Positions 33,804-57,082 of a stretch of DNA of 64,000 nt are shown here, piece by piece; within the stretch, counting starts at the first letter, position 1, and each line of letters begins with the position of its first letter. The position numbers and the translations under genes were made by a program. The notes beneath the pieces were generated by a model. That model ran no database searches, was not told the origin of the DNA, and saw nothing but the letters and a program-made list of their open reading frames with translations. Source of the DNA: a virus; the IMG/VR virus record IMGVR_UViG_3300045988_044010; one strand, 5' to 3'.

Positions 33804-36800
33804 ATGGCAAAACAAAAAATATATGATCCTAGTTTGATCAGTAGTGTAAGACAAAGAAGTCGTGATTATAGTAACTATCTATCTCCCAAAGCGGATTTAG
33901 ATAGTTATGTTCATACTATGTCAAATATTCCTACATAGGATAGTGCGCCAGATTCATTTGGTGTTTCAGATTATTTGTCTAATGCATTCTATGATTGGAA
34001 TCTTACTAGAAATGAAACTAATAAAGATACTGCTTTAGGTGAGTATGTCTTTCTACAAAAAGACTATGATATACTAACAGGAGCTCAATAGTACTTAGAA
34101 GGGGTAAAGAATGTTCTTTAGTTACGCAAAGCTATGGATACGGATCCTAATGCTAACACTCCAGAAAATAAACAGTTACTAAGAGAAGAATCTATCAAAG
34201 TATAGAACAATAAAGTTAATTATGACAAATTATTAGCTAAAGACTTTAATGATCAAGCTGTTCGTGATAATATATTTCCTGAAAGATTTGCTGGTAGACC
34301 TATAGACTTACAGATAGAGATCATACAAACTGTACTAGGTGATGGTGAAATAGATAGACAAGGTGTAATAGCTAGAAGAGACGATGCTTTAAAGAAAGCT
34401 GAGAAATATAAAAAATTTGCAGAATATTGGCAAAGTAAAATGACATCTCAATATTATAGTGATAAGAAGAATTCTCCCGGTATGGATCTAACGGATATAG
34501 ACACGTATCTGTATAAACTACCGGGTCTTTTAGGTTCATCTGCTTCTAGCGCTGGCTCCTAGTTAATAGGTACTCTTGGTGCTATGTTTAGTACAAGAGG
34601 AGCAGGTGGTGTTATGGGTACTTTAGGCTCATTGACTGCGTTTGTAACAGGAAATGTGTACGCAAGAGATCAAGAATCTAAAGCTGAAGTATATCAAAAC
34701 TATAAGTAGAATGTAATGAATTCTGCTAAAAAAGATGGTATAGACAAATAGGTACTTAAAGATGCTAAATCTCAAATGCAAGAAATGGGTTATACACAAG
34801 AACAAATAGATAATGATGATTTTGTGTATGAACAAATATTGTCTAATAAAGTAAAGGTAAATAACAATTCTTTAAACCGTATAAGACTTAATAAAATGGA
34901 TGGTTTAAAGTCTCTTTATACAGACAATATGGCTTTATCTGGAAGTGATATAGTTCAGACAGTACTAGAAGTAACTCCATTGGGTCCTATAGCTAAAAAA
35001 GTAAGAGGATTATCGTCTTTAAAAAAACTTGCTAACAGCAAATATGGTAAAACAGCTTAGGTAATTGCTAGTAAAACTGGAAATCTTAAACAACAGTTAG
35101 CAGATAGAATTGACGATGTTGTAGCATTTGGCATAGAGAGTATAGACAAATTACCTAGACTTACTAGAAGAAAGGCAATAAAAGACATAGCTGGTAGAAT
35201 TGTAATAACATCGGCTTTAGAAGGAGCAGAGGAAGGAGTTCAGTATATAAAAGGTCAAAGATATATAGATGGAGATTTTGAGTCTGATCCTAATCTGATC
35301 AGTAGCTACGTACGTAATTTAGGTACTGGCGCTAGATCTGTATTTGCTGCTATTACTCCATGGGATCCAGTATATTCAGATGACTAGGAGTTTATGGAGA
35401 ACTTTAAAGGTGGTGCTCTATTAGGCGGTTTGATGACTTCTGTAATAGGTACTGCAACTAGTATTAAACCTTTAAATGATCAGATATCTGGTGATAGATT
35501 CTTAGCTGCTTTATATGCAGATAGAGAGGCATAGAAAGATCAAGTTCGTAAGAACATACTATATGGTTCTAAGATAAGAGAAGGTAAATGGAATACTGTT
35601 GAAACAGCGTTTGATAATCTTGTTAACTCTAAAATAGATGGTATAGATGTAGCTGAAATCTAGGAAGAACAGAAAAGAGCTAGATAGATGTATAATATAT
35701 TTACCTCTAATAGAACTGTAGCACAAGCTCAACAGTTAGACATAGATCCAAGAACCGAAGATTATGATATATTTGTAGCTTTAAAAGATCACCACGATCA
35801 GCAAGTAAGAGATGCTAGAGCTACTGCTACTGAACACAGAAGTGAAGCTGATAATTTACTGTATAGTCCTCAAGTATAGGAATACATTGAGAAACTTAAT
35901 ATAAAAGATATAGATCAAGTATCTACTATGAGAAGCGCTATAGCAGCTAAAATTCAACTTGATACTATGTTCCAGTTATATAACGAGTTTGAAAATAAAC
36001 AAAAGACTAAACTAGAGTAGATACAAAAACATACTGGTACTAAAACATCAAAAGCAGATGTAGTACAGTTTGCTGGAATGCTTAACAAAGATATTAAATC
36101 ATTCTAGGAACAGTATGAGAATCTGAAAAAACAGGTTACAGCTCTGGGTATCAAGGAAGAAGATTTAGAGGTTCCATCATTGCATCAAGATTTAAAAGAA
36201 GCTTATGAGAAAGTTATAGCTTCTGAATTAGATCTTAGACGAGCTGAAATGGAACAAACTATTATGGAATCCACAGATAAAGAAGCCATATAGGCTAAGA
36301 TAAATAAGTGGAAAGATGTAGAGGATGCTAGTAATAAGTTTATGTAGCGTCTGGATGACTTATACTCAGGTAAAACAGAAAAGCAGAATGAACAAGATTC
36401 TGAAGATGTCAAACCTGAAGTGTATGAGCAATCACCAGAACCAGTACCTTCTACTATAGAGGATGAGGTTAAAGAACCCACTGATATTTCTGATAAAAGA
36501 AAATAGATAGTTTAGAACAGAGAATAGTATTTTACTCAGGAAAGAGATTCTAGAGGAAGTAATAAATTTGTTTTAAATCCAGACAATACATTTGGTGATG
36601 CCTATAAAAATGCTAATATAAAACTTCAGCAGTCATATAAATTATTATTCCCAAATACAAAAAACTATTCTGACAATGCTGCACAATCTAGGTTAGCATC
36701 TTCTAATCGTCATGGTGAAGTAGCTGATGCTTGGGAAGAGGTGTATAATCTTCGTAATCAATTAGAAGAAGAAGTAGGAGAAAATGGAGCAACACCTAAA

Positions 36801-39800
36801 GCAGAAGAATTAGCCAAAGCGTTAACTCAAAAATCTAATCAATTAATAGATAAAGCTAAGGAATCAGTAGAAATGTGGGAAGCATATAGTGATTTTATAA
36901 GCTCTGGAGAATACTATATTCATCAGCAATTAGAGAGAATTAAGGATAAACAACATAAATTAACTGAACAACAGAATGATGTAACTCCTACTAAAGTTCA
37001 AGAAGCTCCGAGTACTATTCCAGTACAAGATAAAACAAAGACAGAGCCAGCCCAAGTTGAAGATATGCCCACATTAGGTTCTATACTGAGAGGTTTGATT
37101 AGTGAAGAAGATGCTAAAGTGATAGACTAGGCAGTAGAACCAGAAGTACCAACAGAACAAGTGACAGTACCTATAGAAGAACCAATAACTGATAGTGATA
37201 ACGATAAGGTGGCTCCTTTAACATATGATCAACAATTAGATCCATATTCTCATGAATTAAACTACCGTTTAAGTAGAATTACACAAGACAAAGATGGTAA
37301 TTGGACTGTAGTAACTTATAATAAATTCCAAGGTATGGAAGAATACCTTAATAATAAGGAATTTTCAGAAATAAGCGCAGCACCAGATTTTGTATCTGAA
37401 GTTACTAAAAACGGAGTACACTTTGAAGTACGACCATATACTGATGAAAATGGAGTTACGTCTGATGCTATATATGCAATATTTAAATATAAAGATAAAG
37501 AATATGTAGCTTCTGTTAGAACAGAGAAAGGTTTAGCAGCTAAAAGAGGTGGTAGATTTAACAGATTACCTTATGAGCAACAATAGTATATTAAGGAGAA
37601 TTTGCAAAATCTCAGAAACAAAATACTTGAATTGAACAAACAAGTAAAACTTGATGCAGATTTATAGATAGTTCCAACATTTATAAGAACTACTTCAGGT
37701 AGTATTGTGAATGAAGTAAATGCTGATGGAACCCCTAAGAATAGAAATATAATTGACTCTGCTTGGTAGAAAGTAAAGGATCCGTATTAGATTAATCCAA
37801 GTAATACTGAGATGGGTATTAGCACTGGACCTAAAGGTAAATCTATTATCCGTCTTAAAGATAGAGTATTATCATATAATGGTAAGTCTATGGGTAAACC
37901 ATTCTGGATTATAAAAGCTCCTAATTCAGAAGGTGCAATGATAGATAAACCAATTCAGCTTAATTACAAGTACTTTAAAGACCAACCTAAAGTAGCTGAT
38001 CTAATATTAGATTTAGTAACCAGTAATGATCAATTTTACACAGATGCTAATGGAGTACAAACTTCTATTAATCCAAAATAGCTGTTGCACTTTATAGTTA
38101 ACTTTGGTTCACATACTGCTACTAATCCTGAAGACACTAGATTAAATAATGAACAAATTCAATAGAGACTTAAAAAACAATTCTATATTGATGATAATAA
38201 TAATGTAGTAATTGGTACTACTACATACAGTATAAGTGATCTATTAACTGACAAGAATATAAGAGAGCAAGCCAAACAGTACATAATGGACAATTTCCAT
38301 TATGCTATTGATGAAGATGGTCTTAATAAAAATTGGTTAGGTGGAGATTTACAGAATGAAAACAGGGATCCTCACTTTGAATCATTGCACTCTTTTTTCA
38401 AGAACAGCAATGTAGATAAATTGGTTATTGTTCCCGGAGAAATAGAATTTACTCCTAAAGATTTTGGTATAGAATATTAGGATGGTAAGAGAGTTGTATC
38501 AAAAACTAATCCAAATGGTATAAGCGTATTAGGCTGGTATATCAAACAAGGTATACTTATGACTGATATTGCTGATACTTTACAAGATGCTAACATATAT
38601 GTAGATGATGTTACTATCCAAAGTAAGTCATAGAGGTCTGAACAGCAACAGGCTCAGCAACATATCAGTGAGGCTGTAGAAAGGGACTTTAGAAAAGAAA
38701 GTATCAGTTATACTGATGAGCAAGGTAATCAATAGAAACTTGATCTTGGTGAAATCTATAAGATATTAGATGGAAAGAAACGTGGTCCTAATATGACTGT
38801 AGAAGATTCTGTTAAAGACGGAATATGGTATAATGCTACAGAAAAGATGGATGTAGATCAAGCTAAACAGTGGATAGAAAAAACTCTTGGCATTACTCCA
38901 GAAATAACCAATTATGTTATAGATGTTACGGAAGCAGGTCAAAGTGTAGTAGGTAGAGTAACTGTAGATTCTATTAAATTGTATAATGATGCTCCAAAAG
39001 GAGTAGAATTTCATGAGGCTTGGCATAGAGTATCTCAGCTATGCATAGATGAAAAACATAGAAGAAAGATATATGATAGATATAAGAAGAAGAGCAAGTC
39101 AAATCTCTCTGATGCGGCTATAGATGAAATCTTAGCAGAACAGTTCAGAGAATTTATGTTAAATGATGCTGCTAAATATGATTTTGATACAAAGAATTGG
39201 TTTAGACGTATATTGAACTTTATTAAACTATGGGCTAGAACTGGTCAATATGCTTTAGCTAAAATATATGCAGACATTAATAGAGGTAAATATTACGGTA
39301 TAAAACCTAATGAGGCTAATGTAGAAAGATTTAAATCAATATACAGTGACGAAGGTCCAAACTTTGAAGTAAATGGTCACCAATTTAAAGCCATTACTAA
39401 GACTAAATAGTTTGATGATATAGTAAAAAGTCTCACTTATGCTTTCTTCCAATGTTCTTTTGTAGAAGGTAAATCTATTGATTATACTGATATTAATCCA
39501 AAAGATTATAGTTTTGAAAGACTTAAATTAATAGTAGAAGCTTAGAAAAACAAGTTTCCTTCTGAAGCTCTTACTGAAATATATGACAACTTTGATAATA
39601 TATTTGCTCCAGCTATAGCCTCTAAACTTAAATCATTAAATATAAGAACTATAGATAATGATAATGTTACAGCTAAAGAAGAGGGTGAAGAAGGAATAGA
39701 TATAGGACAGCATACAGTAGAAGGGATGAATATATCTATTAAAGACAACGCCCCTGCTGAAGTTAAATTCTTCTTCTAGACTATACCAATGAGACAAAGG

Positions 39801-42800
39801 AATGCCGATGGTTCATATTCAGCTAAGATAGATGCAGTTACCAAATTTCCTAGTTTTGTAGATTCTAATACTGCTTGGAATAATGTACTAAAAGATTTAG
39901 CAGGGTGTAGAACTATTGCCAATATTATGGATAGAATAGTTCTACTGTCTCAAAATGATCAATTCTATGCATCGTTGTTGATAAAGTTCGCAGATTTAGT
40001 TCAAAGATCTACTAATTCAGATCCTAATGTTGCTATAAACGCGGAAGCTATGTTAACTAAGTTAGAAACTGTGATTACTTCTGATATAAACAACTATGTT
40101 ACTGCAAAAATATCATAGGATGAAGCCGGAATGACTACTATGAAATTAACAGACAATACTGTTGATATGAAAGCTATGCAATATCCTAAAGTGTGGTCTA
40201 GGAATATGTTTGAAAATTCTGGCATATTTAAATATAATGAGGATGGTATAGTAGTTGCACAGGATAACGCTAAGAGCAAAATAAACACAGTTCTTAATGC
40301 CCTAAGTACGATCAAACAAGCATTTGTAAATAATAAGGGTATTATACGTACTAAGGATGGTAATTTTGATTTACATGAAATTCAGAATCAAGAGAGGCTT
40401 AAAGATTACATAGTTTCTATATTATAGGAAGTAGGAATTGGGATGGATAAACCTACTATAAATAAGATGTTGTTATCTGGTGATTATGGTAATCCTAAGT
40501 CTGATCCATATACATTGCTAAACACATTTGTAGTAAATACTGTCAACTTTGGTGGATTAAGTAAAATATCTGATACATTAAAGATAATTCAAGATGCTAT
40601 AAAACCTGATAATACTTTGTCTACTATAACAATAAGTGGTAAAGATACATTACCTACACAAATATGGAATGAAGTTGGCTATGTTAAAGCATTGGCTAAT
40701 TATTATGCTTTTGTACATGCTACAGACAAAGGATTAGGTAGTTTAGGTCCAGATGGTAATAGTTATTATATGGTTTCTCAGAACAATTTTGCTAAAGACC
40801 GAGTAAACGAATTAATAACTGATCCAGAATTGTTCCACAATCTAGAAGCTGTAGTATATAATGAACATTCTATTATACTGAGTGCAGTAAGAAATGGTAA
40901 TAAAAATATCCAAGTAGAGACTTTCATTAATTTTAAAGATGAAACTAGTTATGATGCTGGTAGAGATTACTTTAATATAACTCAAAGAGAAGACTACCTT
41001 GCAAAAATGACTGCTATCTTTAATGACAGAATAATATTCCCTACAGTAGCAGATAAGAAGACATATCATTTCATTAGAGGAATTAAATTGCCTCACGAAA
41101 GAATTAGATTTACTAAAACAGGTAATGGTGTTAACATATTATACGGTGAACAATCGTTAGATACAATTATAGGTTATTGTCAAGATGAATTAAATCAGAT
41201 TGAATTGTGTTTAAGACAAATTGACGATGATCCTACTCATTATGATAAAGATAAGAATATCCACTATAATGCTGATGGAACTATAAACAACGACTGGTTG
41301 GATCCTTCTCGCAGAATTAAGAACTTTCATACTCCTAATGAATATAAGTATACAGATGATAAAGGTACAGAGCATACTGTAATGTTAGAAGGTAACGGAT
41401 CTAGATTCTTATTCTTAACCGGAGTATATGTTAATGGGAAGTTCATAGATTTTAACGATCCATCTAAATCTGCTATAGAAAATTTATAGACTGCTAAAGA
41501 TTATTTCTTTAATGCTCCTATTGATACTCAGAAACAATTGATAAGTGGACTGATCAATAGAAGAATGAAGGATGAATTAAAGACAGCTAGAGATTTAGGG
41601 CTTATAGAAATTAATGAAAATCTAGATATCTGGAGTATTAGAAACAAACTATTAGATGATAATGTGCTTGCAGAAAGACAACAAGCGTATGAATCATTGG
41701 ATGCTAATAATGCAGAAGGCTATGCAATATTTGATATGCTTGCAGATTATACTATTAATAGTATTATATCTGTAAGTGAAATAGAGAAAATATTCAATGG
41801 AGCACCTGCTTACTATAAAGTAAAATATGACAGAACCGGTATATTAGACTTATCTGTAGATAAGATTAAACGTCTTGGTTCATTAACTTCTACTGGTACT
41901 AATAATAGGTTAGACTTCTTCAGTAATGATCCTATGAGAGAAGAATACGTAGTAGCTGAACTCAAAGATCATGAAATCCAAAGTAAACAATATTATACAT
42001 ATCGTAATCTATTTACTTTAGGTAATATAAAAGAAACCATTCAAGAAATGAATGGTGAAGAGGCTTGGAATGAAGTTAAGGATCTATCTATACAAGAAAT
42101 AGAGAAACAATATCCAGAAGAAGTAAAAATAGCCAAACAAGCTGCTGAAGTAGAAGTTAGAGGTTATAAAGAGGGAATAAACGTAGCTGACGCTGCTGTT
42201 TACATAAGTCCTATAATGACCAGAGATCTTCTTAGAATGCGTGGACAGTGGAGCCCTGAAATAAAAGAAGCTTTCGATATACTTATGAATGAAGATACTG
42301 CTGAACAGTGGGATTCTAATCCTGAGTTATATGCGAGAGCTAATAAGGTAATACTTAATGCTATGAAGTATATGGCATTTGGTACGAGATTTAATGAAAT
42401 TCCCGGTTTAGGAATACCTTATTTTAATAAAATGGCTTTGTTCCCATTATTTAAATCTGTAGCTACTGGAGATATAAGAGCTTTGTATGATAGGATGATG
42501 GATGAAGATCCTAACAGGAGAATTGATATGGTTATGTTTGATTCTGCTGTTAAGGCTGGATCTAGAGCACCAATGAAAGCATACAGAGCTGCTAAAGACA
42601 GTGAAATAGAGTTAAAAGATGGACAGACTGTATTATCGGCTCATTTAACAGATCAATTACAAAGTGGAGAAGGTAATACTCTGAATGACTTTAATAACCT
42701 AGTTACATATACTTAGAAGTTTAAATACTTACGTCAACAGTTGGCTACAGATCCTCATATTCACGAGGAAACTATGGCTGGTACACAGTTTATGAAAGTT

Positions 42801-45800
42801 AATCTATCTAACATACGTATGAATGATATGTATGGTAAAGAAGGAGAACAAGTATCTGGACAAACTATTAAGGACACAGTAATGAATGCTCTAAATAGAT
42901 TGTCTGATATAGGTAAAGCTAAACTACAAGGTCAACTATTTACTGAAGACGGTTAGGTAAATATAACAGCATTAGGAGAAATGCTTACTGCTGATGCAAG
43001 AGAATCTGATGCCAATGATAATATTATCTCTGGTTTAAATACTAAAAATAATGCGTTTACTATACCATTGTCGGCATTATCTGACAATAAATGGTTGGAA
43101 AGCAGATTCATTTCTATGATCAACAAAGAAGTGATTGACGTACACATGCCAGGAGGTGCGTTTATTCAGCGTTCAGCATTTGGACTAGAAGCTACTAGTA
43201 AGAATGTTATTACTCCTAGTATGATAAATGATGGTAGAGCTTTAAAGGCTATAAATGAAGAAGGTTCTATGGATGCAGTAGTAAGTATAAATCTATTTAA
43301 GCACTTTATACCTGACTACAAAAAAATGACATTCAGACAAGCTAGACAATGGCTTATTGATCACGATATAATAGGACAAAAAGCTACTGCTAATTCTATA
43401 GGTTATCGTATTCCTACACAGTCAATTGCTTCTATATCTCCACTTAGATTTGTAGACGTATTCCCTGAAATAATGGGAGACACAATCATGCTTCCAGAAG
43501 ACTTTACGAAGTTAACTGGTTCTGACTTTGATATTGATAAACTATATGTAGCCAGATTCTCATATAACAAAGATGGTGTAAAGATAAACCACGATATAGC
43601 TAATAGTACAGAACAGGTTGCAAATGCCATTAAGAACGAAATGCTTGATGCATACATGAAAGTATTACTTACTAAAGATAATACCAATTCTCTCAAACTT
43701 TCTATTGATAATGCTACTGAGAATACAAAGGAAGTACTTAAAGATATAGAAAGTAATAGAGAAGTGCATCATGTACAACCATTTGAAGTATATACTCCTT
43801 CATATCAAGAAGCTAGAAAAGCAGAATATACTGGAGGTAAAGCAGGTATTGGACCATTTGCATTGAATAATGCTCATCATATTCTTACTTAGTTAGTAGG
43901 TTTAAAGATGGAAAGTAATGCATTTACAGAAGCTATGAAGATTGTAGATCTTGGTAGAATATACGATTATCCTACAGTAGGTACTAAAAAGGGTGGTAGA
44001 ATATTAGATTGGTTATCTGCTATGATTAATGGTTTTGTTGATATAGCTAAGGACCCATATATTGTACGTCTTAATGTAAACGCTTGGACATATAACATGG
44101 TATCCTTTTTACTACGTACAGGTAAAGGTAAATGGGCATTCTATTTTGTAGGTCAACCTATATTGAAAGAAATGGCAGAAGAAGTTCTTAAAACTAAAGG
44201 AAAATATGGTGTAGATAGAACTAAGTCACCATCGCAACTTGAGAAAGAAGCAATAGAATCTGTACTTGACAAATACGATCCAACTGGTTCTTATAGGAAG
44301 GAATTCCAATATATTAATTCTAAACCAGAATTGAAAGCTAATGCTTATAAGAACTTGTTTGAAACATTTTTTGATGAAGATGGAAAAGAAACTAGCTATT
44401 GTAGAGAGTTATTGTTGAATAATGGAGCATACAATTATTTGAATAAGAGACAAGTAGGTATATATTACGCTTGGCTTGCTCTTAAACCATATGCTGATGA
44501 TCTAGCTAATCTAGTAAAGTACTCCAAGATAGATACTAAAAAAACTGGTAAAACGTTTGCAGAACAACAAATATATTATAATGGTATGCAAGATCTAGCA
44601 GAAGAGAGTCACTTTGCTCCGGGAGAGGTAAGACGTTTTTATGATGAAACTTTTATAGCTAGAAAAACAGAAAATAGTATTCCATTTGGATCTTCTATAT
44701 TTAGGAATTTACTATTTAGAAATACTGATACCTTTATTAGCTAGTATAATACTGTATTATCACTTCTTGGTAGAAAAAATAACGCAAACTCTAAACTATT
44801 AAATCCAATTATATCTGGAATGGAGGCTCAACTGAAAGCTGAATTCTTCAATCAATATGTAGAAGATAATAACATTGATGTAAAAGGTTTGTTCTACGGT
44901 AGAAATAGTATAGCTAAGAGGCTTAATAAGTTCAAAAATATGATATTTAAGGGAGAATATAAATATTTATTGAACGCTGATGGAACTATAAATAATGATT
45001 TCTTAAATTATTTATTACCTAATATAACACATGATGGTTTAGATTTTATTGATACTTCTGAATTATTAAGTTCTGACCAATCTCAGGCTAATAATCTTAT
45101 TAATTACTGGAGAGAATTACTGGATGATCCAAATCCAGAGATTAAGAGATTGGCTAGAGATTTAGCAATATATGCTTTTTACGTATCAGGGGACAATCCT
45201 TCAATGAATTCGTTCTTCCAATATCTTCCAAATAGTTTTAGAAAAGAAATAGGTTACACAGATTATATCCAAGGAAAGTTAGATCAACTAGTAAACGGTT
45301 CCCAACTGGGGTATAAAAATAAAACTGATTTATTCTTAAACAATTGGACTAACGATAGTTTGGTTAAGCCAGTTAGCATGTATAGTGGTAAGAACAATGA
45401 ATAGCTTAGAGGAGTATACATAAACGATAAAGCCGCTATGCCAAACATAATAATGGGCTAGAGAGTAGGATCAGATAAACCAGCCATTAGACCTATTAAT
45501 TGGATTAAAGTAGCTAATCAAGATGGTGTAGAAGAATCTTTCCCGTTATTTCCGCCTTATATTAAATTAAGAGATGGTTTGGGATTTGGTCCATAGAATT
45601 GGCACGTTTATACCATAATTGGTTATAAGTCATTTGTAGAGATACAGCCTAATGGTAAACCCGGTAAAACTGTTTATATACCTTTATATGGTTTAATATC
45701 TAAAAAAGGTTATAAATATAAAGGTCACTCTATAGTAGAGTATGGAAGAGAAACTGCATTTGATTTTAATAAAGAAAATGAATGGGATTATGTAGAAGCA

Positions 45801-47300
45801 TTGAATAATAAAGATGCTTTAGCAGATATGGCTCTTCAACAAGAAAGACAAGATTGGATAGACGATGCTCCTTATATTCATCATATAACAGAACTACCTA
45901 GTTATTAGAACATGAATTATGCGTTAGCTAGACAAGATAGAGTATATACTGAAACGGAAGATGATATGAATGTGGACGATGAGTTCTTTCCTGTATTAGA
46001 AGAAAGAGAAGAACCTACAATTTTGGCTGATTATAGTAATATAAAAAATTACTTGAAAACATATAGTGGTATAATAACTAATCTAGAACCTAATCAAATA
46101 TTTGTATTTGGTTCAAATACACAAGGTAGACATGGTAAAGGAGCTGCTTTAACAGCAAAAAATAAATTTGGAGCAGTGTATGGACAATCAGAAGGTATAC
46201 AAGGATAGTCTTATGCTATAATAACTAAAGATTTGACAAGTAGTGTACAACCATCTAGAACTCCAGAATAGATAGTTGAATAGATAAACAAATTATACAC
46301 TTATGCTAGGCAGCATAGAGACAAAGAATTTTTAGTAGCATATTCTGGCACAGGTACTAATCTAAACTACTATTCTAATGAAGACTTAGCACGTATGTTT
46401 GCTAAATACCCTATACCAGATAATATAGTGTTTGAAAAATCTTTTAGTGAACTTGTGTTTAAATACATAAATAAAGAAATAGATAAAATGTTTAATAACA
46501 CGAATGCTGCAAAATTTATTAATCACTCTGGAGGAGCTCTTGGATCAGATACTATGTGGGGTAAAATAGGTGAAGAATATGGAGTATATTCTAAACACTA
46601 TTACGCAGAAGGTCAAAAGACGCCTAATGGAAATACCGCATTGGGTAAACAATTATTATCTGAATCAGATGTTCATCTGAAGGAAGCTAATAAAAAATTA
46701 GGTAGATTATTTCCTACTAGTAAAGACTATGTGAATAATTTACTTAGACGTAATTGGTTTCAAGTAAAGAATGCTGACGCAGTATTTGCTATAGGAACTA
46801 TAGCTGATAATGGTACTGTAAATGGTGGTACTGGTTGGGCTGTTCAAATGGCAATAGATAATAATAAAGATGTATATGTATTTGATCAAAGTAGGTTAAA
46901 ATGGTATAGGAATAGAGATCATAAATGGTCAGAGGTAACCACACCAAAACTCACTCCTAATTTTGCAGGTATAGGTACTAGAGAAATAACGCAAGAAGGA
47001 ATTCAAGCCATTAGAAATGTTTATGCTCTTACTTTTAGAGGGTAGATTGAAAACTATATTAGTCTAGAAAATAAATCAGATCTATTCCCATCTAGTTTAC
47101 CACTAACTGGAGTTGAATTAATGGCATTATATGAACAAGGAAATTCAAGAATAAGTGAAGTACTTGATCAAATGGAAGATCTTACACCAGAAGAAAGATA
47201 GACTTACTTAAATGAATTTGCACAGTTTATGACAGACAATGAAGTTAATACGCAAGATAAACTTGAAGAAGCATTGAGAAAATTCATATGTAACTTATAA
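33804..47300 (+). CDS. giant virion protein, 4498 aa with about 49 TAG. It contains a zincin-like protease motif and a crAss-type RNA polymerase DFDID motif.
   Basis: ATG 33804 and all track ORFs from 34776 to 46395 start at coordinates divisible by 3. In my codon-by-codon reading the only in-frame stops before TAA TAA (47298-47303) are TAG. Motifs are HEAWH at 39012-39026 and GSDFDIDKLY at 43518-43547. Confidence 0.75.
39012..39026 (+). other. HExxH zinc-metalloprotease motif (HEAWH)
   Basis: CAT GAG GCT TGG CAT is in frame with the giant ORF, in the context GVEFHEAWHRVSQL. Confidence 0.55.
43524..43538 (+). other. DxDxD metal-binding motif (DFDID) of a two-barrel RNA polymerase
   Basis: GAC TTT GAT ATT GAT is in frame, in the context LTGSDFDIDKLYVARF. 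Compare NADFDGD in the cellular beta-prime subunit. Confidence 0.65.
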
Positions 47301-47312: not shown

Positions 47313-50300
47313 ATGTATAAATGTCCTAACAAAAATCTTCCTGAATGGAAGGAACTAGAAAAAGTTGTACCAGAAGTCGCATATACTATCTGGGATATGA
47401 ATAATGGTCATGGTATAGATAAGGCTCCGAATGGGGAGCCTTCTATATTGTTTGACAATTTAATATAGAAACTAGGTAATAGAGAAGAAGCGATTAAAGC
47501 TAAAGCTAAGATATTCTCTAGAGATTTTATACAGAGTAAAGAAGAATACGCTAAAGATTCTAACGGAGAACCTATAGTTGACGCTGTATTAACATTGCCA
47601 CAAGTAACATATAATGAAGTAAATTTTGATTTACTGAATGAGGATCAAATTAGAGTGATATCAGAAGTATCTAACACTTATAACAAGATACAAAAAGGTC
47701 TAAAAGATAGACTTAATGCTATTAAAAGATACTCAAATAAAAGCCCTAAAGTATGGAGATAGTTACAAACTTTAATACAACAATTATCTAATTCTGAGAC
47801 TGAACAAGGTATGTTACAATTCATGGAGCATATAGATGAATCAGTTAAAGACAGTATCCAGTTCTTGAATAGACCAATTGAAGATATAAATTCTAAATAG
47901 ATTAGGTAGCTGTCCAATGATTATGTTGGATTCTACAAACCACTTATAGACGATATTGCATATTTAGTAGATACTACAGATTTATTCAAAGATAAAGAGA
48001 ACTATCAACAGATAAAAGATAATCTAAGTCAATTACAACAATAGCTTAATCAAGTAAATAATAAATTTATTAATGTTCTCAAAAGTAAAGGTTATTAGTA
48101 TTTGAAGAATTTCTTAAAATAGCAAGGAATGCCTAATGATATCATACAAGAAACTATAAATTGGTTAGATGATCCCAAACATGATTCTAACATGTTTATG
48201 AATTGGTTCGGTATGGCTACTAATAGTAATAATGCTGTTCAACAAACTATAGCTAAAACGTTAAATGACGTAAAAAATGCTACAGATAGAGAAACTCTAG
48301 ATGTTGGTATAAAATTGACTAAAACATTAAAAGTTGCCAAAGATAAGTATGGTAACGATGTCTAGAAATTACTGTATGAAAAACTTGATGATGGTACATA
48401 TTCTGGATTAAGAGTTAAACCTCTTAATTATGGTCAAATGAGTAAAAACAGAAAGGAATTTCTGTAGAAATTAGCAGAAAAATTATCTATAGAAAAAGAT
48501 AGTGATGGACAATATATACTACCATAGGATGAAGATATTTAGAATAAATGGTATACTGCTATAAATAACTGGTATAATGAAAATGCAGACAGAAAATATA
48601 AATCTGAATATTATACGGCTCGTAATAAAATATTATCGTTAAAAACCAGAGATGCTGTGAATGAGGTATAGAGATACATTGATAACTTAACATCTCCTAT
48701 TACTATTGATGGTGTAGAATATACTAACTTACTTAGTGAATCTGAATAGATGCAGTTAGAATAGTTGCGTAAACAAAAATCTCTATTATCAAATCCATAT
48801 AATCTAGATGGAAGTGAGAAGACTGGAGATGATGCTATAATAGCTAAAGAATTATCTGAATTTAACAAGCTAGTATCTGAACATATAAAATATAAAACAG
48901 ATAAAGCTAAATATGATGCAGACAGAGCCAAAGTAGCTAGTAAGTATGGGGAAGGATCCGAAGAGTTAAAGCTATGGGAAAATAGAAACACTGTAGAGAA
49001 ATATACTTAGGAATTCTATGACAGAATAGATAATCTAAATAAAGTAGAACAAAGTGATATATACTAGGATTTAGTTCAAAAAAGAAGACAGCTTCAACAA
49101 CTGTTTAAAGATCCACGTACAGGCAAAATAGATGTTACTTAGTTATCTGATACTGAAAAAGCTGCACTATTATAGTTAGATCAAGATATCGCAGATGTAA
49201 CTGAATTTAAAACAAAGGAAGAAACAGAAAGTAATTCAGATAAGTTCAGTGATTTTGCAGAAATGGCTTTTACTGATTAGTATTTTATAGATATGGACAA
49301 TGCTAAGAAAGCGGGAACATAGGCTTATAATGATTGGTTTATGGCTAACCATTATGAAGACAAAAGAGGATATATGTAGGCTGCATCTTATTACAAAGAG
49401 CTAAAACCGCTTCCTCAATATATACAATAGTATACAGAAAGAGCTCCTATAAACAAATATTCTACATTAGATCCTAGTTCTGATTGGTATAATAACAATT
49501 GGGATCCAAACGGTCCGGCGATACAACCAAAAAAAGATAAGTATAACAATAAGAAGGCTTATGACGCTATGGCTAATAAACCAGAGGTATTAGACCTATA
49601 TAATTAGATTGAAGAAATAATGTCATTAGCCAATAGTTATGTATCTTTCATGTAGTTCGCTAATGACAGTAGAATGCCTCAAATACCTGCTAGATTTATG
49701 CAAGCACTTAATCGTAAAGATGGTCTTTTATCAAAATTAGGATATGCTTTTGAAGATTTAGCTACAACTAAAGCAGATGACTTAGACTTCGTGGAAGAAT
49801 TCGCTACTATGCCTAATGGAGACCCTATAAAAGTAATACCTACTAGATTTATAAAAATGTTAGATGACCCAAATACTATATCTACAGACGCAGTAGCGGC
49901 TACAGTATAGTATTATAATATGGCAGCTAATTATAAAAATATGTCAAAGCATTAGGACGATATAGAGCTTATGCTAAATCTTTTAAAGTAGGTATCAATT
50001 AAAACAAGGAAGGACGTTAAAGGTCCCGGTTCTACTAATGTTTACAAGCAATCACAACTGTTAGTTGATAGACTGATGTATGGTAGAAATAAGAGTCCTA
50101 TATTAGTAGAAGCGTTTGGTAAAGAATATAATGTAGGTAAGATGCTAGATATTGCTAGAGGATTTGTTACTAAAGTTAACCTATCTGGTAACTTATGGTC
50201 TATTGGAACTAGCTTCTTTACAGATGCTACATATACTACTTTAGAGGCAAAAATGGGTAAATACTTTGACTTAGAAGATCTAAACTTTGCTAAGAGTGAA

Positions 50301-51461
50301 TTCTTTAGGTAGCTTCCAGATATGATGGCAAACATTGGTAATCCTATACCAAACGGCAAAGTACCATATTTATTGATGTTAAATCAAGTAGTAAAAGACA
50401 ACAGAGAATTATTTGATAGATTAGACCAAAGTCAAGTATTACGTTCTATTAATCAGAACTTTTGGTTTGCAGGATATACACAAGCAGATTATACTGTTAA
50501 AAGCCACACGCTTCTAAGTATCTATCATAATTATCGTTTCGTAGATGGTGAAGGTTTTTTATCTAAACAATAGTATATTGATAAATTTTATTCAGATGAT
50601 AGAAAAAAAGGAGCAGTGGCATTTAAACAGCTTTCTACTACGTTATATGATGCTTATATCACTAATAATAAAGGCGAGGTTTCTGTAGATTCTAAATACA
50701 GTAAGTATGTTACTGAAAAGCTTTTAAATGATGTTAGAAATAGAATTGATATATTATCTAAAAGAATTGACGGTACTTTGAGAGAAGTAGATAAAGCAGC
50801 AGTTCATGCAAGTTCTATTGCATCTTACTTAGTATTACATCGTAACTTTATGGTATCTGCTTTATAGGATAGATTTAAGAAGAGACAATATAATCTAGAT
50901 CTTGGTGCTATGGAAGAAGGTTATTATAGATCTGCTGGCAAGTTCTTATCAAATGTGTTAAAGAATAAACATTTTGCTCTTACTTAGTTATTAGCAGATT
51001 ATAATAATATGAAAGACTATGAACAATATGGAGTAAGAAGAGTACTTAATGAGTTAATGTTGGTAGCTGGTTCTACGTCAGTAGCTATTGCATTTGCTTC
51101 ATTAGTAGATGGAGATGATGATTATGATATGTGGTTAACACAATCAATTACGTACTTGGCTATGCGTTCAGCATTTGAATTTAGAACTATGTATAACCCA
51201 CTCGAATTAATTTCTTTAATCAAATCTCCTACAGCAGCTTTCAATTGGTTTGATAATTTATCAAGCTTCATTAATCTGATAAATCCATTTGCATATACTG
51301 GAGATAGAACACCTTTTACTATAATAGATAGAGGAGTGTATAAAGGAATGCCTGTTATATTAAAGAATATAATTAAAGTAACCCCATTTAAGAGTGCATT
51401 TGAAGCTTAGGATCCAAAAACAAAACGAAATTATCTATAGAATCAATTAATGAACTTCTGA
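47313..51461 (+). CDS. large virion protein, 1382 aa with TAG read-through
   Basis: ATG 47313 lies 10 nt after the TAA TAA. Track ORFs 48129, 48765, 49674, 50076, 50322, 50616 and 51009 are all in the same frame. Interruptions are TAG only, up to TGA 51459-51461. Confidence 0.65.
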
Positions 51462-51484: not shown

Positions 51485-51534
51485 GCAGTGAACACTGCAA
51501 AAAAGGAAAAGCCTACTAGACAACTAGTAGGCTT
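51485..51534. terminator. convergent-module terminator region (two hairpins)
   Basis: GCAGTG/CACTGC lies at 51485-51498. An 11-bp stem AAGCCTACTAG/CTAGTAGGCTT lies at 51509-51534. On the minus strand the second hairpin is followed by TTCCTTTTTT. Confidence 0.65.
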
Positions 51535-51539: not shown

Positions 51540-52040
51540 TTATATGTCATCACCAAATTCCATATAACTATAATAGTCTTCTTCTGGTATTTCAGCTTCT
51601 ATAGACTCACCAAATCTATAGTGATTATAAAACAAACGCTCTTCTAATTCTGGAACTGGCACGTTGTTCCAAAACCTGTTTATTTCTAATGCTGTTTTCA
51701 AATTATAAGTTTTACCATTTATACGAAGCCTATCAATATCTTTTTTATACTTAGGATTACTAAAACAATAGACAGTATAATGTTTTTTCTTAATAGTTAT
51801 ATAGTGAGTATTATAGATAGTATCTAACTGTCTAAACTTAAGAAATCTGTTTAAAGATTCCTTAGTGTTTACACTACTATCATAAACAAAAAAGACCTTA
51901 TCTTCTAAATAAGGTCTATTCTTATCACTAGTAAACGCATTAACAAAACCACTTTCTACTGTTAAATCTTCCCAAGTAATGTTATCGTTGCATAACGGAG
52001 CTATATATATACTTACATCATTCAAGTTCTTCAGTTCCAT
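51540..52040 (-). CDS. hypothetical protein (166 aa)
   Basis: Intact ORF with a TAA stop. It is the last gene of the leftward module. Confidence 0.7.
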   Translation of the reverse strand: MELKNLNDVSIYIAPLCNDNITWEDLTVESGFVNAFTSDKNRPYLEDKVFFVYDSSVNTKESLNRFLKFRQLDTIYNTHYITIKKKHYTVYCFSNPKYKKDIDRLRINGKTYNLKTALEINRFWNNVPVPELEERLFYNHYRFGESIEAEIPEEDYYSYMEFGDDI

Positions 52041-53004
52041 CTTCTTCGTAATATTTACGAGTATGGTCCCAATTACCTGTCTGATAATGATATGATATTT
52101 CTGTTAATGCTTCTGCTATTAGGTCTTTGCGATCCAACAACTCTTTCTCATTTAACATATTAAAAACACGTACTTCATTATTACCATTACTCTGAATAGC
52201 AATAATATACGCTTCTAAATCATATTCTTCTATATCATAACCTTCTTCCTTGAAATACCAAGTAAGAGCTAGTATATAGAATGCTATCTGTCTATAATAA
52301 TCATATTCTTCTACAGAATGCTTGAAATTATAAACATCAGCAGTTGTTTTTAAGTCAATTAATGTAATCCTTCTATTACAATGGTCAATCTTGACTCTAT
52401 CTAATAGTGACTTACAGGATACATTTGCTTTTTCATATTCCCAATTTATATGAAACTCATTATTACATTCTAAACCGGGCTGATTTGTAAGTAACTCACT
52501 TGCTTTTTTATGATTATCTATGTTTTCCTTAATACGTCTAAGCATAGTTATATCAGCAAATGATATTACTGTTTTGTTAGCTTTTTCAAGTTTTAAGTAT
52601 GAAATATATTCTCCGAACGAATCAACTATCTGTTTAGCTTCTTCTAGTTTTTTCTCATTAGATTTACTATTACTATAAGCTTTATTATAGCTATTAAGCA
52701 ATAATTTATCATTATCTTCTAGAGGATTTACAGCTAATTCTTGAACATATTCTATACATAAAGTTTTTTGTTGACTTACTTTAGGTACTACAAAATCTAA
52801 GATTATATAGTTATCCCAAAATTCGTCTGGTTGAAGTAGGTACATATGTATCATAGTTCCTTTTTCAAGAAACTTTCCACTAATACCTTCTTCTTTACCA
52901 TCAAGCATATCCTTGAGGTAACGAGGTCCTTTCTTCAAGAACCATCCTATTGCTGAATTTGATATTCGCGTGTTATCTTCATAATACGGAATTTCTATTT
53001 TCAT
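52018..53004 (-). CDS. PD-(D/E)XK family exonuclease (328 aa)
   Basis: Intact ORF. The ITLIDLKTT motif, with upstream acidic residues, fits the D...(D/E)xK nuclease signature of RecE/RecB-like phage exonucleases. Confidence 0.65.
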   Translation of the reverse strand: MKIEIPYYEDNTRISNSAIGWFLKKGPRYLKDMLDGKEEGISGKFLEKGTMIHMYLLQPDEFWDNYIILDFVVPKVSQQKTLCIEYVQELAVNPLEDNDKLLLNSYNKAYSNSKSNEKKLEEAKQIVDSFGEYISYLKLEKANKTVISFADITMLRRIKENIDNHKKASELLTNQPGLECNNEFHINWEYEKANVSCKSLLDRVKIDHCNRRITLIDLKTTADVYNFKHSVEEYDYYRQIAFYILALTWYFKEEGYDIEEYDLEAYIIAIQSNGNNEVRVFNMLNEKELLDRKDLIAEALTEISYHYQTGNWDHTRKYYEEDGTEELE

Positions 53005-53903
53005 GCTGCTGTTTTTGTTTCTTCAAATATGTTACTATCTACAATAAAATCTTCTTCTATTGTATTAGTGTCAGTAACAAAGTTTCCTGAAGTATCCCAT
53101 TCAACTTCATCTTCCTTTACAGGAATTTCTGCGCGTAGTTCTTCTGAGTAATTCTGTATGAGATCGCTCAGTTGCTTAGAAAACTCTACAGTTTGTGTTA
53201 AATTGGATATTGTTTGTAATCGTAGAAGAATCTCATCTATGATTTCTTGTCTTTTGTCTTCAGTCATAATATCTATTGTTACTATTTCCAAGTTCTTTTT
53301 AAAATTATACCCATCGTCCAATATAGAACAATTATGTTGTCCTATATGCCCATATGATACACCATCATGCCAATGTCCAAACAAATGATGTTTATATCTT
53401 CCAGAACTATAATAAAATAATTCATTATTATAATTAGGATTATCATGAGTAAGCAGTATATCACATTTAGGTATCTTTTTGAATGGATTATCTTCTACTT
53501 CATCAGTAGGATATTCAAATGCCCATTTACCCGGTTGGTATTCGATAGGTTTTATCCAAGGAGTTCCATAGAAGGTTGTACCTTCATATGTATATGACTC
53601 ATCAATAAGCATTTCTACTTTATTACCAGTCATTCCTCTCATAACCTCTTTAGTTTCTGCCCAAGCTTCTTCGTTATAGAGCTTTTCTAGGTAGAAATCA
53701 TGATTACCCGGAACTACGATTATCTTTTTACAAGGTAATTCATTAGCCCATTTAGTAAATCTTCTAGTCCACCAAGTAGCAGATGCATCCATGGATCTTT
53801 GTTCATTTAATGGAATTATGTCTCCACAAATGCACAAAACATCACATTTAGGAATCCCATTATAGAGATTCCCATGTATATCACTAATTCCACATATTTT
53901 CAT
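53001..53903 (-). CDS. calcineurin-like metallophosphoesterase (300 aa)
   Basis: Motifs GISDIHGN, CGDIIP, VPGNHD and GHWH. Confidence 0.8.
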   Translation of the reverse strand: MKICGISDIHGNLYNGIPKCDVLCICGDIIPLNEQRSMDASATWWTRRFTKWANELPCKKIIVVPGNHDFYLEKLYNEEAWAETKEVMRGMTGNKVEMLIDESYTYEGTTFYGTPWIKPIEYQPGKWAFEYPTDEVEDNPFKKIPKCDILLTHDNPNYNNELFYYSSGRYKHHLFGHWHDGVSYGHIGQHNCSILDDGYNFKKNLEIVTIDIMTEDKRQEIIDEILLRLQTISNLTQTVEFSKQLSDLIQNYSEELRAEIPVKEDEVEWDTSGNFVTDTNTIEEDFIVDSNIFEETKTAA

Positions 53904-53954
53904 ACTGTAAGAATTTAGTAAGTTTATATATAAGTATTGAATAAAATAGTATCA

Positions 53955-54788
53955 TTAGAATAAATCATCATCTATATCATCAGAATTACTTGTTCCTGTC
54001 CTTATTACTCCATTTAAGCTAAGATTCATATCTTTAGCTAATTTATCTAATGGAATATCTTCGAAGAGAACAACTTCATCCAAGAATGCTGAAATATTAT
54101 CAAATGATTTAACTTCCATATGTTCGACGATGAAGTTCACAACTTCATCTATGTTCTTTACTCCTTTATCTTCTGCCATATAGCGTACGAATACAGAATT
54201 AGAATTTGCTTCATATTCTTTGAAATAACGAACACGTGAACAACGATCAAAGAAGTTATCGTCTATTTTATCTGTTTTATTACAGGTCATCAATACCAGT
54301 TTCTTTGACGTAGCTTCTACACCATCTAAGAATCCTAACAGATCCTTAGTTTCCCACCAATAACTATTCTTCTCAATTTCGTCAAACATAACTACTACAG
54401 GAGTAGTAAAATGTTTGAAGAAACTAGTAAGTTTATTAGCAGGATAGTCATTTGCGACTATAATAATAGGTAAATTACTTTCTAAGGCAATACGTTTAGA
54501 GAGCATTGTTTTGCCTGTACCTTTAGTACCAGCAAGCAATATACCTGTTGTCTTTCCAGAATTTTCGGAATTAAAATAATTAAGTACACGCTTGATAAAC
54601 TTATTATCTTCTTCTAGTTCATATAATTTATTTGGCATGTTTAAATCTCCATTCTCTTTGAGATAAGATCTTCCCTGCATTCTATCATACTCTAGATCGT
54701 ATACTTTATTATTTATGAGCTCATAAGAAATACCTTCTAACTTAGGTTTAACTGTAATCTCATTTCCAATCTTAATAAATTCTGCCAT
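53955..54788 (-). CDS. AAA+ ATPase (277 aa)
   Basis: Walker A is LLAGTKGTGKT. Walker B is VVMFDEIE. Confidence 0.8.
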   Translation of the reverse strand: MAEFIKIGNEITVKPKLEGISYELINNKVYDLEYDRMQGRSYLKENGDLNMPNKLYELEEDNKFIKRVLNYFNSENSGKTTGILLAGTKGTGKTMLSKRIALESNLPIIIVANDYPANKLTSFFKHFTTPVVVMFDEIEKNSYWWETKDLLGFLDGVEATSKKLVLMTCNKTDKIDDNFFDRCSRVRYFKEYEANSNSVFVRYMAEDKGVKNIDEVVNFIVEHMEVKSFDNISAFLDEVVLFEDIPLDKLAKDMNLSLNGVIRTGTSNSDDIDDDLF

Positions 54789-54801
54789 AACTGTAATTTT
54801 T

Positions 54802-55194
54802 TTATGTTTTTAACTTGTTGACCAATTCATCAACTTGTTTTTGCGTATGTACTATATAATAATCTATATCTAGATTATTTACATACAAATAATACTTAAA
54901 AAGTTTTTCACGCAAAGCCCATGCATCATTTGGATAGCCTTTGCATTCAATAATAAACTTATCACCTACAAAATCAGGTTTATAAGTTATTGCTCTATAT
55001 TTCTTATCACCAAAAGTAAAAGCTGGAAGCAGTTCGTATCGTTGAGTTTCATACTCAGCTTTGATATTCGACTCTTCCAGCTTCTTATATGTATATGTCT
55101 CAAGTTTGCTTTTAAACTTAATACCATTATACTCATTTGGTGTTGCATTGCGAATTTTGCTTTCGCTAGGTTTATTTCTTTTCCTCTACATCAT
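54802..55194 (-). CDS. DUF1064-like PD-(D/E)XK nuclease (possible Holliday junction resolvase), 130 aa with TAG at codon 3
   Basis: It is not in the ORF track. The minus strand reads ATG ATG TAG AGG..., giving MM[TAG]RKRNKPSESKIRNATPNEYNGIKFKSKLE...ITYKPDFVGDKFIIECKGYPNDAWALREKLFKYY, with TAA at 54802-54804. There is no ATG/GTG/TTG after the TAG. Confidence 0.6.
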
Positions 55195-55327
55195 TAGTAA
55201 TATTAGATTTTCTGGAAATAGTTTTCCTTTTATGTCCAAAGGCAATAAAAAAATTACTATTTACTAATTTGAATGGAAAAGCTAATGCTTTACGCAATCC
55301 TTTGGAAATATAATTAAGTTTGCTCAT
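55172..55327 (-). CDS. small upstream ORF (51 aa)
   Basis: The ATG overlaps the TGA of the upstream phosphoesterase as ATGA. It ends at TAA 55172-55174 and overlaps the start of the DUF1064-like ORF by 23 nt in another frame. Confidence 0.3.
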   Translation of the reverse strand: MSKLNYISKGLRKALAFPFKLVNSNFFIAFGHKRKTISRKSNITNDVEEKK

Positions 55328-55896
55328 TGTTTTATATAGTTTTTTATGAAATTAGCCAATTTATCAATAGATACAAAGTCATAATTTGCAAAACTACTAT
55401 CAATACCAACATCTATACGAATGTGGTCAGGTAATTCTGCTGAGTTTTGTAAATCTACCGATCCATGGCAATGACCGTGAAGCATTATACTACCTTTTTC
55501 AATATGTTCCCAAGAGAACATAGGAAAATGACACATAATTACTTCAATGTCTTTTGGTAATGACTGAAACACAGTTTTCTTAAATGTCATATTCTTTATC
55601 TGAGTAATATGATTGAAGAAACATCTGTGATTATCTGATACTTTATCATGATTTCCTAGTATAAGTACTTTATTTCCATTTAATCTCTGAAATAGTTTTC
55701 GTTTTTCATCTGTTGTTCCAAATGCAAAATCTCCTAGAATATATACAGTATCATGTTTATCAATTCTACTGTTCCACTTTTGTATCATTTTCTCTGTTAC
55801 CTCTTTCATATTATTACCAAATAGTTCTCTCCGTTTAGGATGAAAATCTAGTATTCTATTATGAAAGAAATGCCAATCTGCTGTGAACCATATCAT
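55324..55896 (-). CDS. metallophosphoesterase (190 aa)
   Basis: Motifs TADWHFFH, GDFAFG, LGNHD and HGHCHG. Confidence 0.8.
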   Translation of the reverse strand: MIWFTADWHFFHNRILDFHPKRRELFGNNMKEVTEKMIQKWNSRIDKHDTVYILGDFAFGTTDEKRKLFQRLNGNKVLILGNHDKVSDNHRCFFNHITQIKNMTFKKTVFQSLPKDIEVIMCHFPMFSWEHIEKGSIMLHGHCHGSVDLQNSAELPDHIRIDVGIDSSFANYDFVSIDKLANFIKNYIKQ

Positions 55897-56864: not shown

Positions 56865-56879
56865 ATGATATATTGTTAG

Positions 56880-56965
56880 TGGCAGTGTAGAGATTTGAAC
56901 TCTACAGTAAAGGAAAGCTGTATCTTACTTTCTTTACACCATGCTCCTGACACTCCGGAACTGCC
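56880..56965 (-). ncRNA. tRNA-like element (acceptor helix plus canonical T-arm, non-canonical core)
   Basis: The minus strand reads GGCAGTT...TAGAG-TTCAAAT-CTCTA-CACTGCC-A. A 6-bp acceptor helix stacks on a 5-bp T stem with a TTCAAAT loop. The 54-nt interior forms a 10-bp bulged helix instead of D and anticodon arms. Its 3' end is 15 nt upstream of the primase ATG. Confidence 0.35.
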
Positions 56966-56971
56966 ATTAAA

Positions 56972-57033
56972 ACGTAGGTTGTGTACTATTTCGTAATCAC
57001 TCATTTTTCATAGTGCGGTACACTAACCTACGT
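56972..57033 (-). ncRNA. long hairpin (15-16 bp stem) in the SSB-primase intergenic region
   Basis: ACGTAGGTTAGTGTAC (57033-57018, minus strand) pairs with GTACACAACCTACGT (56986-56972), with one bulged base. Confidence 0.5.
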
Positions 57034-57082
57034 GTTCGTCGTATTATGCCCGACGTGGCGGCTTTATATAAATCCTAACAGA

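Follow-up and report, generated by a model that had tools for sequence, protein, structure and literature searches.

A giant TAG-containing open reading frame of a crAss-like phage: probable identity as a virion RNA polymerase polyprotein and strain-variable modules at its C-terminus

For the crAss-like type of RNA polymerase (RNAP), packaging into the virion, injection and function in early transcription are known only for the phages phi14:2 and crAss001. In phi14:2, three separate genes are involved, with gp66 (2180 amino acids (aa); PDB entry 6VR4) as the polymerase and its neighbours gp65, which is the zincin protein, and gp67 as partners. The same three-part module is present in Kehishuvirus (Steigviridae), presumably the genus of crAss001, where the zincin ends the first protein, the DFDID motif lies in another and the three genes are again separate, two of them on the opposite strand. 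Virions of crAss001 contain gp47, gp49 and gp50, as determined by mass spectrometry (PMC10172136). RNAP genes of up to ~6000 aa are regarded as a hallmark of the crAss-like group (PMC10136315), fused RNAP polyproteins have already been described in published work, and TAG is reassigned to glutamine (Gln) in delta-group crAss-like phages, mostly in late genes (PMC7886860). N4-like phages (Schitoviridae) likewise possess a very large injected virion RNAP (vRNAP) with a zincin-like peptidase and optional effector domains; in N4, the polymerase itself belongs to the T7-like single-subunit enzymes and has no relationship to the two-barrel polymerases of the crAss type, and the likeness is thus one of architecture and logic, not of polymerase descent. 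The subject of this study is a giant open reading frame (ORF) on the + strand of a 64-kb window, i.e. the whole stretch of viral DNA that was analysed (IMG/VR record IMGVR_UViG_3300045988_044010; all nucleotide (nt) positions refer to it). Very probably, this ORF encodes the virion-packaged RNAP polyprotein of a Suoliviridae ('delta' group) crAss-like phage that reads TAG as Gln in its late genes, and fuses two of the three cargo proteins. As judged from the sequence, the chain would consist of a zincin-ending subunit (aa 1 to ~1850), a single-chain gp66-type polymerase with the DFDID motif (aa ~1850-4050), a cassette that here contains the two modules D1 and D2, and a 69-aa tail (Table 1).

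From its ATG to its final TAA, the ORF comprises 4498 sense codons; TAG accounts for 49 of them, and in-frame TAA and TGA are absent. The preliminary description of this DNA had proposed a single ORF of this length with TAG as sense codon; automated translation detected no TAA or TGA within 33804-47297 and placed the two motifs reported there exactly as given, with HEAWH at aa 1737-1741 (nt 39012-39026) and GSDFDIDKLY at aa 3239-3248 (nt 43518-43547). The other five frames across the same region contain 168-595 TAA and TGA codons apiece, and if 9.2% of codons are taken to be TAA or TGA, as they are off frame, 4498 codons without either would arise with a probability of ~1e-188. For comparison, 83 giant homologs were used to assess motifs and C-termini, and the 79 complete IMG/VR relatives to assess ORF length. 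The single ORF is kept in 79/79 of the latter, with 4036-5002 codons, 28-79 TAG and no TAA or TGA. The length of the protein, which had been placed at the upper end for phage proteins, does lie there; it is not exceptional in its clade, given 4036-5002 aa among the 79 relatives and up to ~6000 aa in the group at large.

Among published genomes, the closest to the window are cr113_1 and cr109_1 (both Buchavirus, Suoliviridae) and cr114_1 (Suoliviridae), with nt identities of 74-76%, and synteny with cr109_1 extends gene by gene over both strands. By synteny with cr109_1 and Kehishuvirus, the RNAP gene belongs to the 'transcription gene block' that closes the late operon, beside the other large subunits. 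In cr109_1 (Buchavirus splanchnicus), the same gene at the same position is annotated as a single coding sequence (CDS) (YP_010112503.1; 4328 aa, 12987 nt, 70 TAG, 66% aa identity), as it is in cr114_1 (YP_010112977.1; 4272 aa, 12819 nt, 69 TAG, 58% aa identity). Both homologs share the zincin motif, the DFDID motif and the C-terminal tail with the window protein, which is 170-226 aa longer; the cr109_1 protein has D2 only, and that of cr114_1 carries a different, unassigned C-terminal part of 222 aa. The giant ORF is therefore of a kind already known, since both RefSeq annotations and published work contain this fusion, and the window adds one member. Since it confirms a known hallmark of Crassvirales, this identification matters little by itself. 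The RefSeq records (NC_055892, NC_055868, NC_055872, NC_055900 and others) list the giant homologs as 'DprA-like DNA recombination-mediator protein', 'DNA helicase', 'exonuclease V', 'nuclear pore complex protein-like protein' or 'hypothetical protein'. None of them is named as an RNA polymerase, so that the product names, which stem from a minor domain or a chance match, are misleading; that of the cr109_1 protein derives from its small DprA-like domain only.

The polymerase core was identified by comparison with solved structures. When aa 1151-4060 were compared with the sequences of the entire PDB by phmmer, one meaningful match was returned, 6VR4 (E=2.5e-36), in which aa 2576-2717, 2987-3266 and 3273-3468 were aligned with residues 809-935, 1122-1400 and 1487-1682 of gp66, respectively. 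The GSDFDIDK of the window protein fell onto the identical GSDFDIDK of gp66 (residues 1361-1365). By sequence, the alignment covers those regions of gp66 that hold its two double-psi beta-barrels, bridge helix and trigger loop. In addition, aa 2756-3598 matched the 'putative RNA polymerase' WEU69770 of Kehishuvirus (2412 aa; 8e-22). HEAWH is found unchanged in all relatives (83/83) and DFDID in all but one (82/83); such conservation speaks for a function of both sites. The earlier proposal that a zincin motif combined with DFDID marks a crAss-type virion RNAP is supported by this conservation and by the similarity of the DFDID region to this class of enzymes, and the assignment of the core to the phi14:2 gp66-type crAss-like virion RNAP is supported by these alignments.

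An alignment of gene boundaries, as the preliminary description had recommended, placed the zincin part and the polymerase part of the ORF on two Kehishuvirus genes and the third subunit on the next ORF of the window. The C-terminal end of the Kehishuvirus 'RNA-polymerase subunit' WEU69768 (2310 aa) is matched by aa 1668-1833 (BLASTP 5.7e-13, profile 3.5e-16). Because parts of the ORF thus map onto separate genes, it represents a fusion of two of the three Steigviridae genes; compared with the three-gene organization of phi14:2, the gp65-like and gp66-like parts are joined in one chain, to which the cassette is added. The expectation that this function would be split over several genes in better-studied relatives therefore holds for Kehishuvirus, for crAss001 (gp47/gp49/gp50) and for phi14:2 (gp65/66/67). 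TAG recoding is used by the window phage and is not shown here for phi14:2. Upstream of the zincin, a profile of the N-terminal 1900 aa built from the 83 relatives and compared with Kehishuvirus proteins revealed homology for the zincin part alone, leaving the N-terminal ~1650 aa without detectable similarity to the cargo proteins of that genus. Per 150-aa block, the N-terminal region is 38-77% identical to that of cr109_1, and it contains a single Gly-rich hydrophobic stretch (aa 536-554). Within the zincin-like region, the residues flanking HEAWH are at least 95% conserved, as is a Glu ~39 residues downstream, to which no structure or profile match assigns a metal-ligand role.

Following the phi14:2 and crAss001 systems, the giant gene would be expressed late, once a phage tRNA(CUA) permits read-through of its 49 TAG codons, and its product would be packed in the cargo zone of the capsid. 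Upon infection, the polymerase would be extruded through the tail in a partly unfolded state, before or alongside the DNA, and refold in the Bacteroidales host, where the early genes of the - strand block would be transcribed by the injected enzyme with no need for the host polymerase. D1 and D2 might act at once on host defences based on ADP-ribose or nucleotides, and the zincin might cleave the polyprotein or activate the polymerase. We infer packaging, injection, cleavage, enzymatic activities and the host of the window phage from its relatives and the literature.

Several observations weigh against the identification as a virion RNAP polyprotein. In searches with the whole protein and with sub-segments, Pfam found neither the polymerase core nor the zincin above threshold, and PHROGs gave nothing across aa 1-4060, which include both, beyond one weak stray hit. 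The protein is only ~25% identical to gp66 and to the Kehishuvirus polymerase, and this in patches, and aa 1-1650 are devoid of a detectable homolog of known function. Packaging, cleavage and activity have no trace in the sequence itself. Finally, the yield of full-length protein over 49 TAG codons would be 8% at 95% read-through per codon (0.95^49) and 61% at 99% (0.99^49), so that more than 95-99% read-through per TAG codon must be achieved for a useful yield.

The role of the zincin was weighed separately. From the comparison with other injected proteins, it probably processes the polyprotein or activates the polymerase. Alternatively, the protein might act as a single uncleaved chain of 4498 aa whose zincin attacks a host target, either peptidoglycan or a host protein, during entry. 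A preprint by Drobysheva considers that the RNAP is activated, that the peptidoglycan layer is digested, or both, Iyer et al. (2017) assigned an HExxH-containing region in the N4 vRNAP to the zincin-like metallopeptidases (PMC5512222), and no cleavage-site motif was identified in the giant protein. In the same study, however, zincin peptidases were the hub most often seen in polyvalent injected proteins, and a role in processing multidomain polypeptides was proposed for them (PMC5512222), and the parts joined in the giant protein function as separate proteins in other families. An uncleaved chain with a host-directed zincin is therefore considered rather unlikely, and self-processing or activation of the polymerase is preferred.

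The main added observation, and the part most deserving follow-up, is the C-terminal cassette. In the window, D1 and D2 are bordered by conserved sequence on either side, namely a pre-flank (aa 3960-4050) and the 69-aa tail, whose terminal FICN[LQ] forms the C-terminus of 78/83 giants. PHROGs assigned aa ~4092-4218 to phrog_2072 (unknown function; 4.3e-35) and aa ~4227-4367 to phrog_768 ('DprA-like DNA recombination-mediator protein'; 5.7e-14). In Pfam searches with sub-segments, neither D1 nor D2 was detected above threshold; for D2, weak scores were obtained for Pfam DNA_processg_A (DprA; E=0.15) and for nucleoside deoxyribosyltransferase (E=0.2). Profiles of D1 and D2 gave no significant match among PDB sequences. 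An AlphaFold2 model was inspected that had been made on P0001, a database protein ~99% identical to the last 588 aa of the window protein (aa 3911-4498). It consists of two confident domains (predicted local distance difference test (pLDDT) >90) followed by a helical tail. With this two-domain model, the best Foldseek matches were the SLOG-type 'molybdenum carrier' 3imk (E=2.4e-3) and several macrodomains, among them TARG1, Poa1p, 2afc and 5e3b (prob 0.9-1.0, TMt 0.5-0.67, E 0.03-0.4), whereas the model of a D2-only homolog returned 3imk alone (E=1.2e-3, prob 1.0) and no macrodomains. By subtraction, D1 appears to be macro-like and D2 SLOG-like. Since no PDB match was obtained by Foldseek at E <=1e-3 for either model, both assignments are tentative and are to be taken as fold-level leads, not as established memberships. 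D2 contains an invariant loop, NHSGGAxGxD.

The content of the cassette is highly variable. Across the 83 relatives, the corresponding interval (window 45954-47297; loci L006-L085) spans 30-885 aa and shows ~20 architectures. A short tail with no module is found in ~32 proteins, D2 only in 10, D1 only in 4 with the conserved tail and 2 (L027, L030) with a divergent one, and D1+D2 in 2, namely the window and L006. D2 is combined with NADAR in 5 proteins and with a second zincin and NADAR in a further 5, and a cpYpsA-SLOG module occurs, with or without D1, in 6. Further architectures include D2+DUF1848, D2+NADAR+DUF1848, NADAR only, second zincin only and several with unassigned stretches. Pfam identified the other modules as NADAR (1.9e-17), DUF1848 (3.3e-24) and cpYpsA (3.9e-23); the second HExxH domain gave a weak SprT-like match (1.1e-3). 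DNA identity in the five closest strains amounts to 93-97% over 21 kb; nevertheless, clean indels that keep the frame distinguish them: L007 and L010 lack D1, with 16 nt replacing the D1 indel interval given in Table 1, and L008 and L009 lack D2, with ~19 nt replacing the D2 interval. D1 is also missing in cr109_1 and cr113_1. No obvious direct repeats or microhomology were found at the cassette junctions, only short replaced linkers of 16-19 nt. The linker motif IDKMFNN, which recurs at some junctions, was rejected as a general recombination signal, as it is present in only 5/83 proteins.

Homologs of the modules were also found outside this group of proteins. Dozens of free-standing D1+D2 proteins with the same domain order (P0007-P0052; ~315 aa, ~46% identity) were retrieved, some of them from contigs of 300-400 kb, and D1 is also part of the giant genes of cr50_1 and cr112_1. 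Other homologs join D1 or D2 to NADAR (PF08719), DUF4326 (PF14216), YspA-type SLOG (PF10686), helicase or DUF3127 domains. At 55% identity, D2 lies inside the vRNAP CDS of the N4-like Klebsiella phage Pylas (Schitoviridae; NC_049444, CDS 9040-20499), at L003 12001-12513, which corresponds to about aa 987-1158 of the 3819-aa protein. One accessory domain has thus been recruited by two unrelated kinds of injected RNAP.

Two published concepts bear on the cassette. SLOG, Macro, NADAR and DUF4326 domains form a recurrent phage toolkit that is predicted to destroy ADP-ribose-derived immune signals and typically consists of stand-alone proteins (Iyer et al. 2022, PMC9503650). Zincin peptidases are central to injected 'polyvalent proteins', as is the virion RNAP in N4-like phages (Iyer et al. 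2017, PMC5512222). The cassette fits both. It shares the domain repertoire and the combining tendency of the toolkit; in the window phage, unlike the typical stand-alone case, the modules are in-frame, strain-variable parts of an RNAP polyprotein. The giant protein also shows the architecture of a polyvalent protein, with N-terminal region, zincin, RNAP, macro-like module, SLOG module and tail, its delivery into the host being predicted. This suggests that the cassette modules may be injected counter-defence effectors, and because they ride on the injected polyprotein, the enzymes would arrive ahead of any phage gene expression. We tentatively propose, as a possibility that falls somewhat short of probable, that the cassette is a strain-level combinatorial set of effectors which delivers counter-defence against ADP-ribose or nucleotide signals before the phage genes are expressed, and that its content tracks the defences of local Bacteroidales and determines the host range at strain level in the most abundant group of gut phages. 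Examples of such defences would be DNA ADP-ribosylation of the DarTG type and cyclic ADP-ribose (cADPR) signalling of the TIR/Thoeris type. Among the papers searched, none was found that describes the cassette for Crassvirales, which is not proof of its being undescribed. Near-identical strains of an abundant human-gut phage differ by whole, putatively enzymatic modules at the C-terminus of a presumably injected protein, and these appear to belong to domain families implicated in the reversal of ADP-ribosylation and the degradation of NAD-derived immune signals. If confirmed, the cassette would provide a concrete, testable locus for arms races between gut phages and their hosts, with counter-defence pre-packaged on the virion polymerase.

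A different function for D2, as a true DprA-type recombination mediator that loads RecA on single-stranded phage DNA instead of a conflict module acting on nucleotides or ADP-ribose, is suggested by the label of phrog_768, the same name being given in RefSeq to the whole cr109_1 protein. The Pfam score for DNA_processg_A is, however, far under the cut-off, and the best fold match of D2 is a cpYpsA/'molybdenum carrier' SLOG protein, not DprA. In the relatives, NADAR, cpYpsA, macro-like and DUF1848 modules moreover replace D2 or accompany it, and these partners represent the SLOG-Macro-NADAR association that Iyer et al. (2022) tied to ADP-ribose processing (PMC9503650). Taken together, these data make a DprA function improbable.

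Several lines of evidence support the reading of TAG as Gln in the late genes. When the TAG sites of the window were compared with two RefSeq relatives, 30/91 aligned cases (33%) showed Gln or TAG, against a background of 4.8%, and Gln was among the top residues at the TAG sites of D1 in free-standing homologs of the C-terminal modules. With the standard code, TAG interrupts the whole + strand block (1-51461), which resolves into long ORFs once TAG is taken as sense; in-frame TAG amounts to 11.6 per 1000 codons in this late block vs 0.5 in the - strand block (51540-64000), and it terminates no gene in either. No tRNA gene was found within the 64-kb window. In cr109_1, a tRNA with the anticodon CTA lies ~50 kb upstream of the giant gene, just upstream of the terminase gene, and the same tRNA(CUA) is encoded on contig IMGVR_UViG_3300045988_029815 (L099), from which the sequence of strain L007, with 96% identity to the window, also derives. 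By synteny, the tRNA(CUA) of the window phage would probably sit ~17 kb before the window start and hence outside it. The claim of the preliminary description that TAG is a sense codon is thus supported by the aligned Gln/TAG sites, the contrast between the blocks, the lack of TAG terminators and the tRNA(CUA) of the lineage.

If TAG were instead a true stop, the region would represent ~50 short genes or a decayed pseudogene. Under the standard code it does split into fragments of <=408 codons, and the window is devoid of a suppressor tRNA. Against this stand the complete lack of TAA and TGA, at the probability given above, a frame that is open in all 79 complete relatives though the TAG positions vary, which effectively refutes the idea, the alignment of TAG with Gln, the lack of genes that end on it, the tRNA(CUA) of the lineage and the homology to gp66, which extends across TAG positions. 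We accordingly give a stop function practically no chance. For annotation, it is relevant that standard-code gene callers shatter the giant gene into ~50 pieces.

The distribution of TAG along the ORF is uneven. It occurs 30 times in aa 1-1650 (1/55 codons), 10 times in aa 1651-3860 (1/221) and 9 times in aa 3861-4498 (1/71), a difference that was significant over the three segments (chi-square p=2e-4) and agrees with the higher N-terminal density noted before. For the TAG-free runs of the core, lengths of 278-392 codons had been reported; the measured runs comprise 219-408 codons and thus differ slightly from this range. TAG sites moreover fall at less conserved positions of the giant protein. 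The N-terminal part is richer in Gln-type codons (7.2% vs 3.7%), and the share of TAG among such codons is lower in the conserved core (12% vs 25%, p=0.048). The Gln-richness of the N-terminal part accounts for about half of the uneven density, and the lower TAG share of the core for the rest.

In the lineage, the gene for tRNA(CUA) is located ~0.8 kb away from a tRNA-Met gene (loci L099 5191-5263 and 6067-6144, L086 11608-11687); in cr109_1, the genes that directly follow it are those for a homing endonuclease and the terminase. ARAGORN labelled the tRNA 'Pyl', which is due only to its anticodon, and the RefSeq label in cr109_1 is tRNA-Gln.

An assembly chimera, either of the single ORF or of the D1+D2 tail, might be suspected since the assembly behind the window is unknown and close strains differ in their cassettes as they might after a mis-join, but is hardly conceivable given that the independent contig L006 carries the same ORF of 4498 codons with D1+D2, that the ENA protein P0001 is ~99% identical over the last 588 aa and that the cassette indels are clean and in frame between colinear flanks of 93-97% identity.

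Table 1. Positions of the giant ORF, its predicted parts and adjacent features in the window.
Feature	Position (nt)	Strand	Remarks
Giant ORF, predicted virion RNAP polyprotein	33804..47300	+	ATG at 33804, TAA at 47298-47300; 4498 codons + TAA; 49 in-frame TAG read as Gln
N-terminal region, aa 1-1650	33804..38753	+	Gln/Glu-rich, least conserved, richest in TAG
Zincin-like metallopeptidase region, aa ~1668-1850	38805..39353	+	HEAWH; matches C-terminal end of WEU69768
Putative RNAP body, aa ~1851-4050	39354..45953	+	catalytic DFDID at 43524-43538; 6VR4 match
Module D1, aa 4084-4225	46053..46478	+	phrog_2072, tentatively macrodomain-like fold; indel 46016-46499
Module D2, aa 4236-4411	46509..47036	+	tentatively SLOG/'DprA-like' Rossmannoid; phrog_768; indel 46493-47072
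Helical C-terminal tail, aa 4430-4498	47091..47297	+	ends ...RKFICNL; conserved, kept whatever the cassette content
Third RNAP-associated subunit, separate gene	47313..51461	+	~1382 aa, 33 TAG in ~1385 codons; Kehishuvirus WEU69769 match
Hairpin, perfect 11-bp stem	51509..51534	.	AAGCCTACTAG-ACAA-CTAGTAGGCTT; T-run on - strand side

The gene downstream of the giant ORF encodes a product that matches the Kehishuvirus 'RNA-polymerase subunit' WEU69769 (BLASTP 8.5e-28) and is 73% identical to gp52 of cr109_1. Its TAG density of 1 per 42 is among the highest of the large genes in the window and above that of any part of the giant ORF. It is followed by a hairpin that separates the convergent late (+) and early/replication (-) blocks and, from its sequence, looks like a terminator in both directions; two terminator-like sites were found, vs 0.1 expected from shuffles. 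Opposite the cassette, an antisense ORF of 225 codons with 13 TAG (45766-46443, -) was dismissed as spurious, since it arises only when TAG is taken as sense on a strand that does not code. Three + strand ORFs of the TAG-recoded late block (1660-2643, 15587-16126 and 20018-20653) contain no TAG at all; they might have been acquired recently or be structural genes with high expression. In the replication block, the - strand ORFs 53001-53951 and 55324-55899 have no counterpart in the otherwise colinear region of cr109_1; given an intron-type endonuclease of cr114_1 in that neighbourhood, they may be mobile endonuclease genes.

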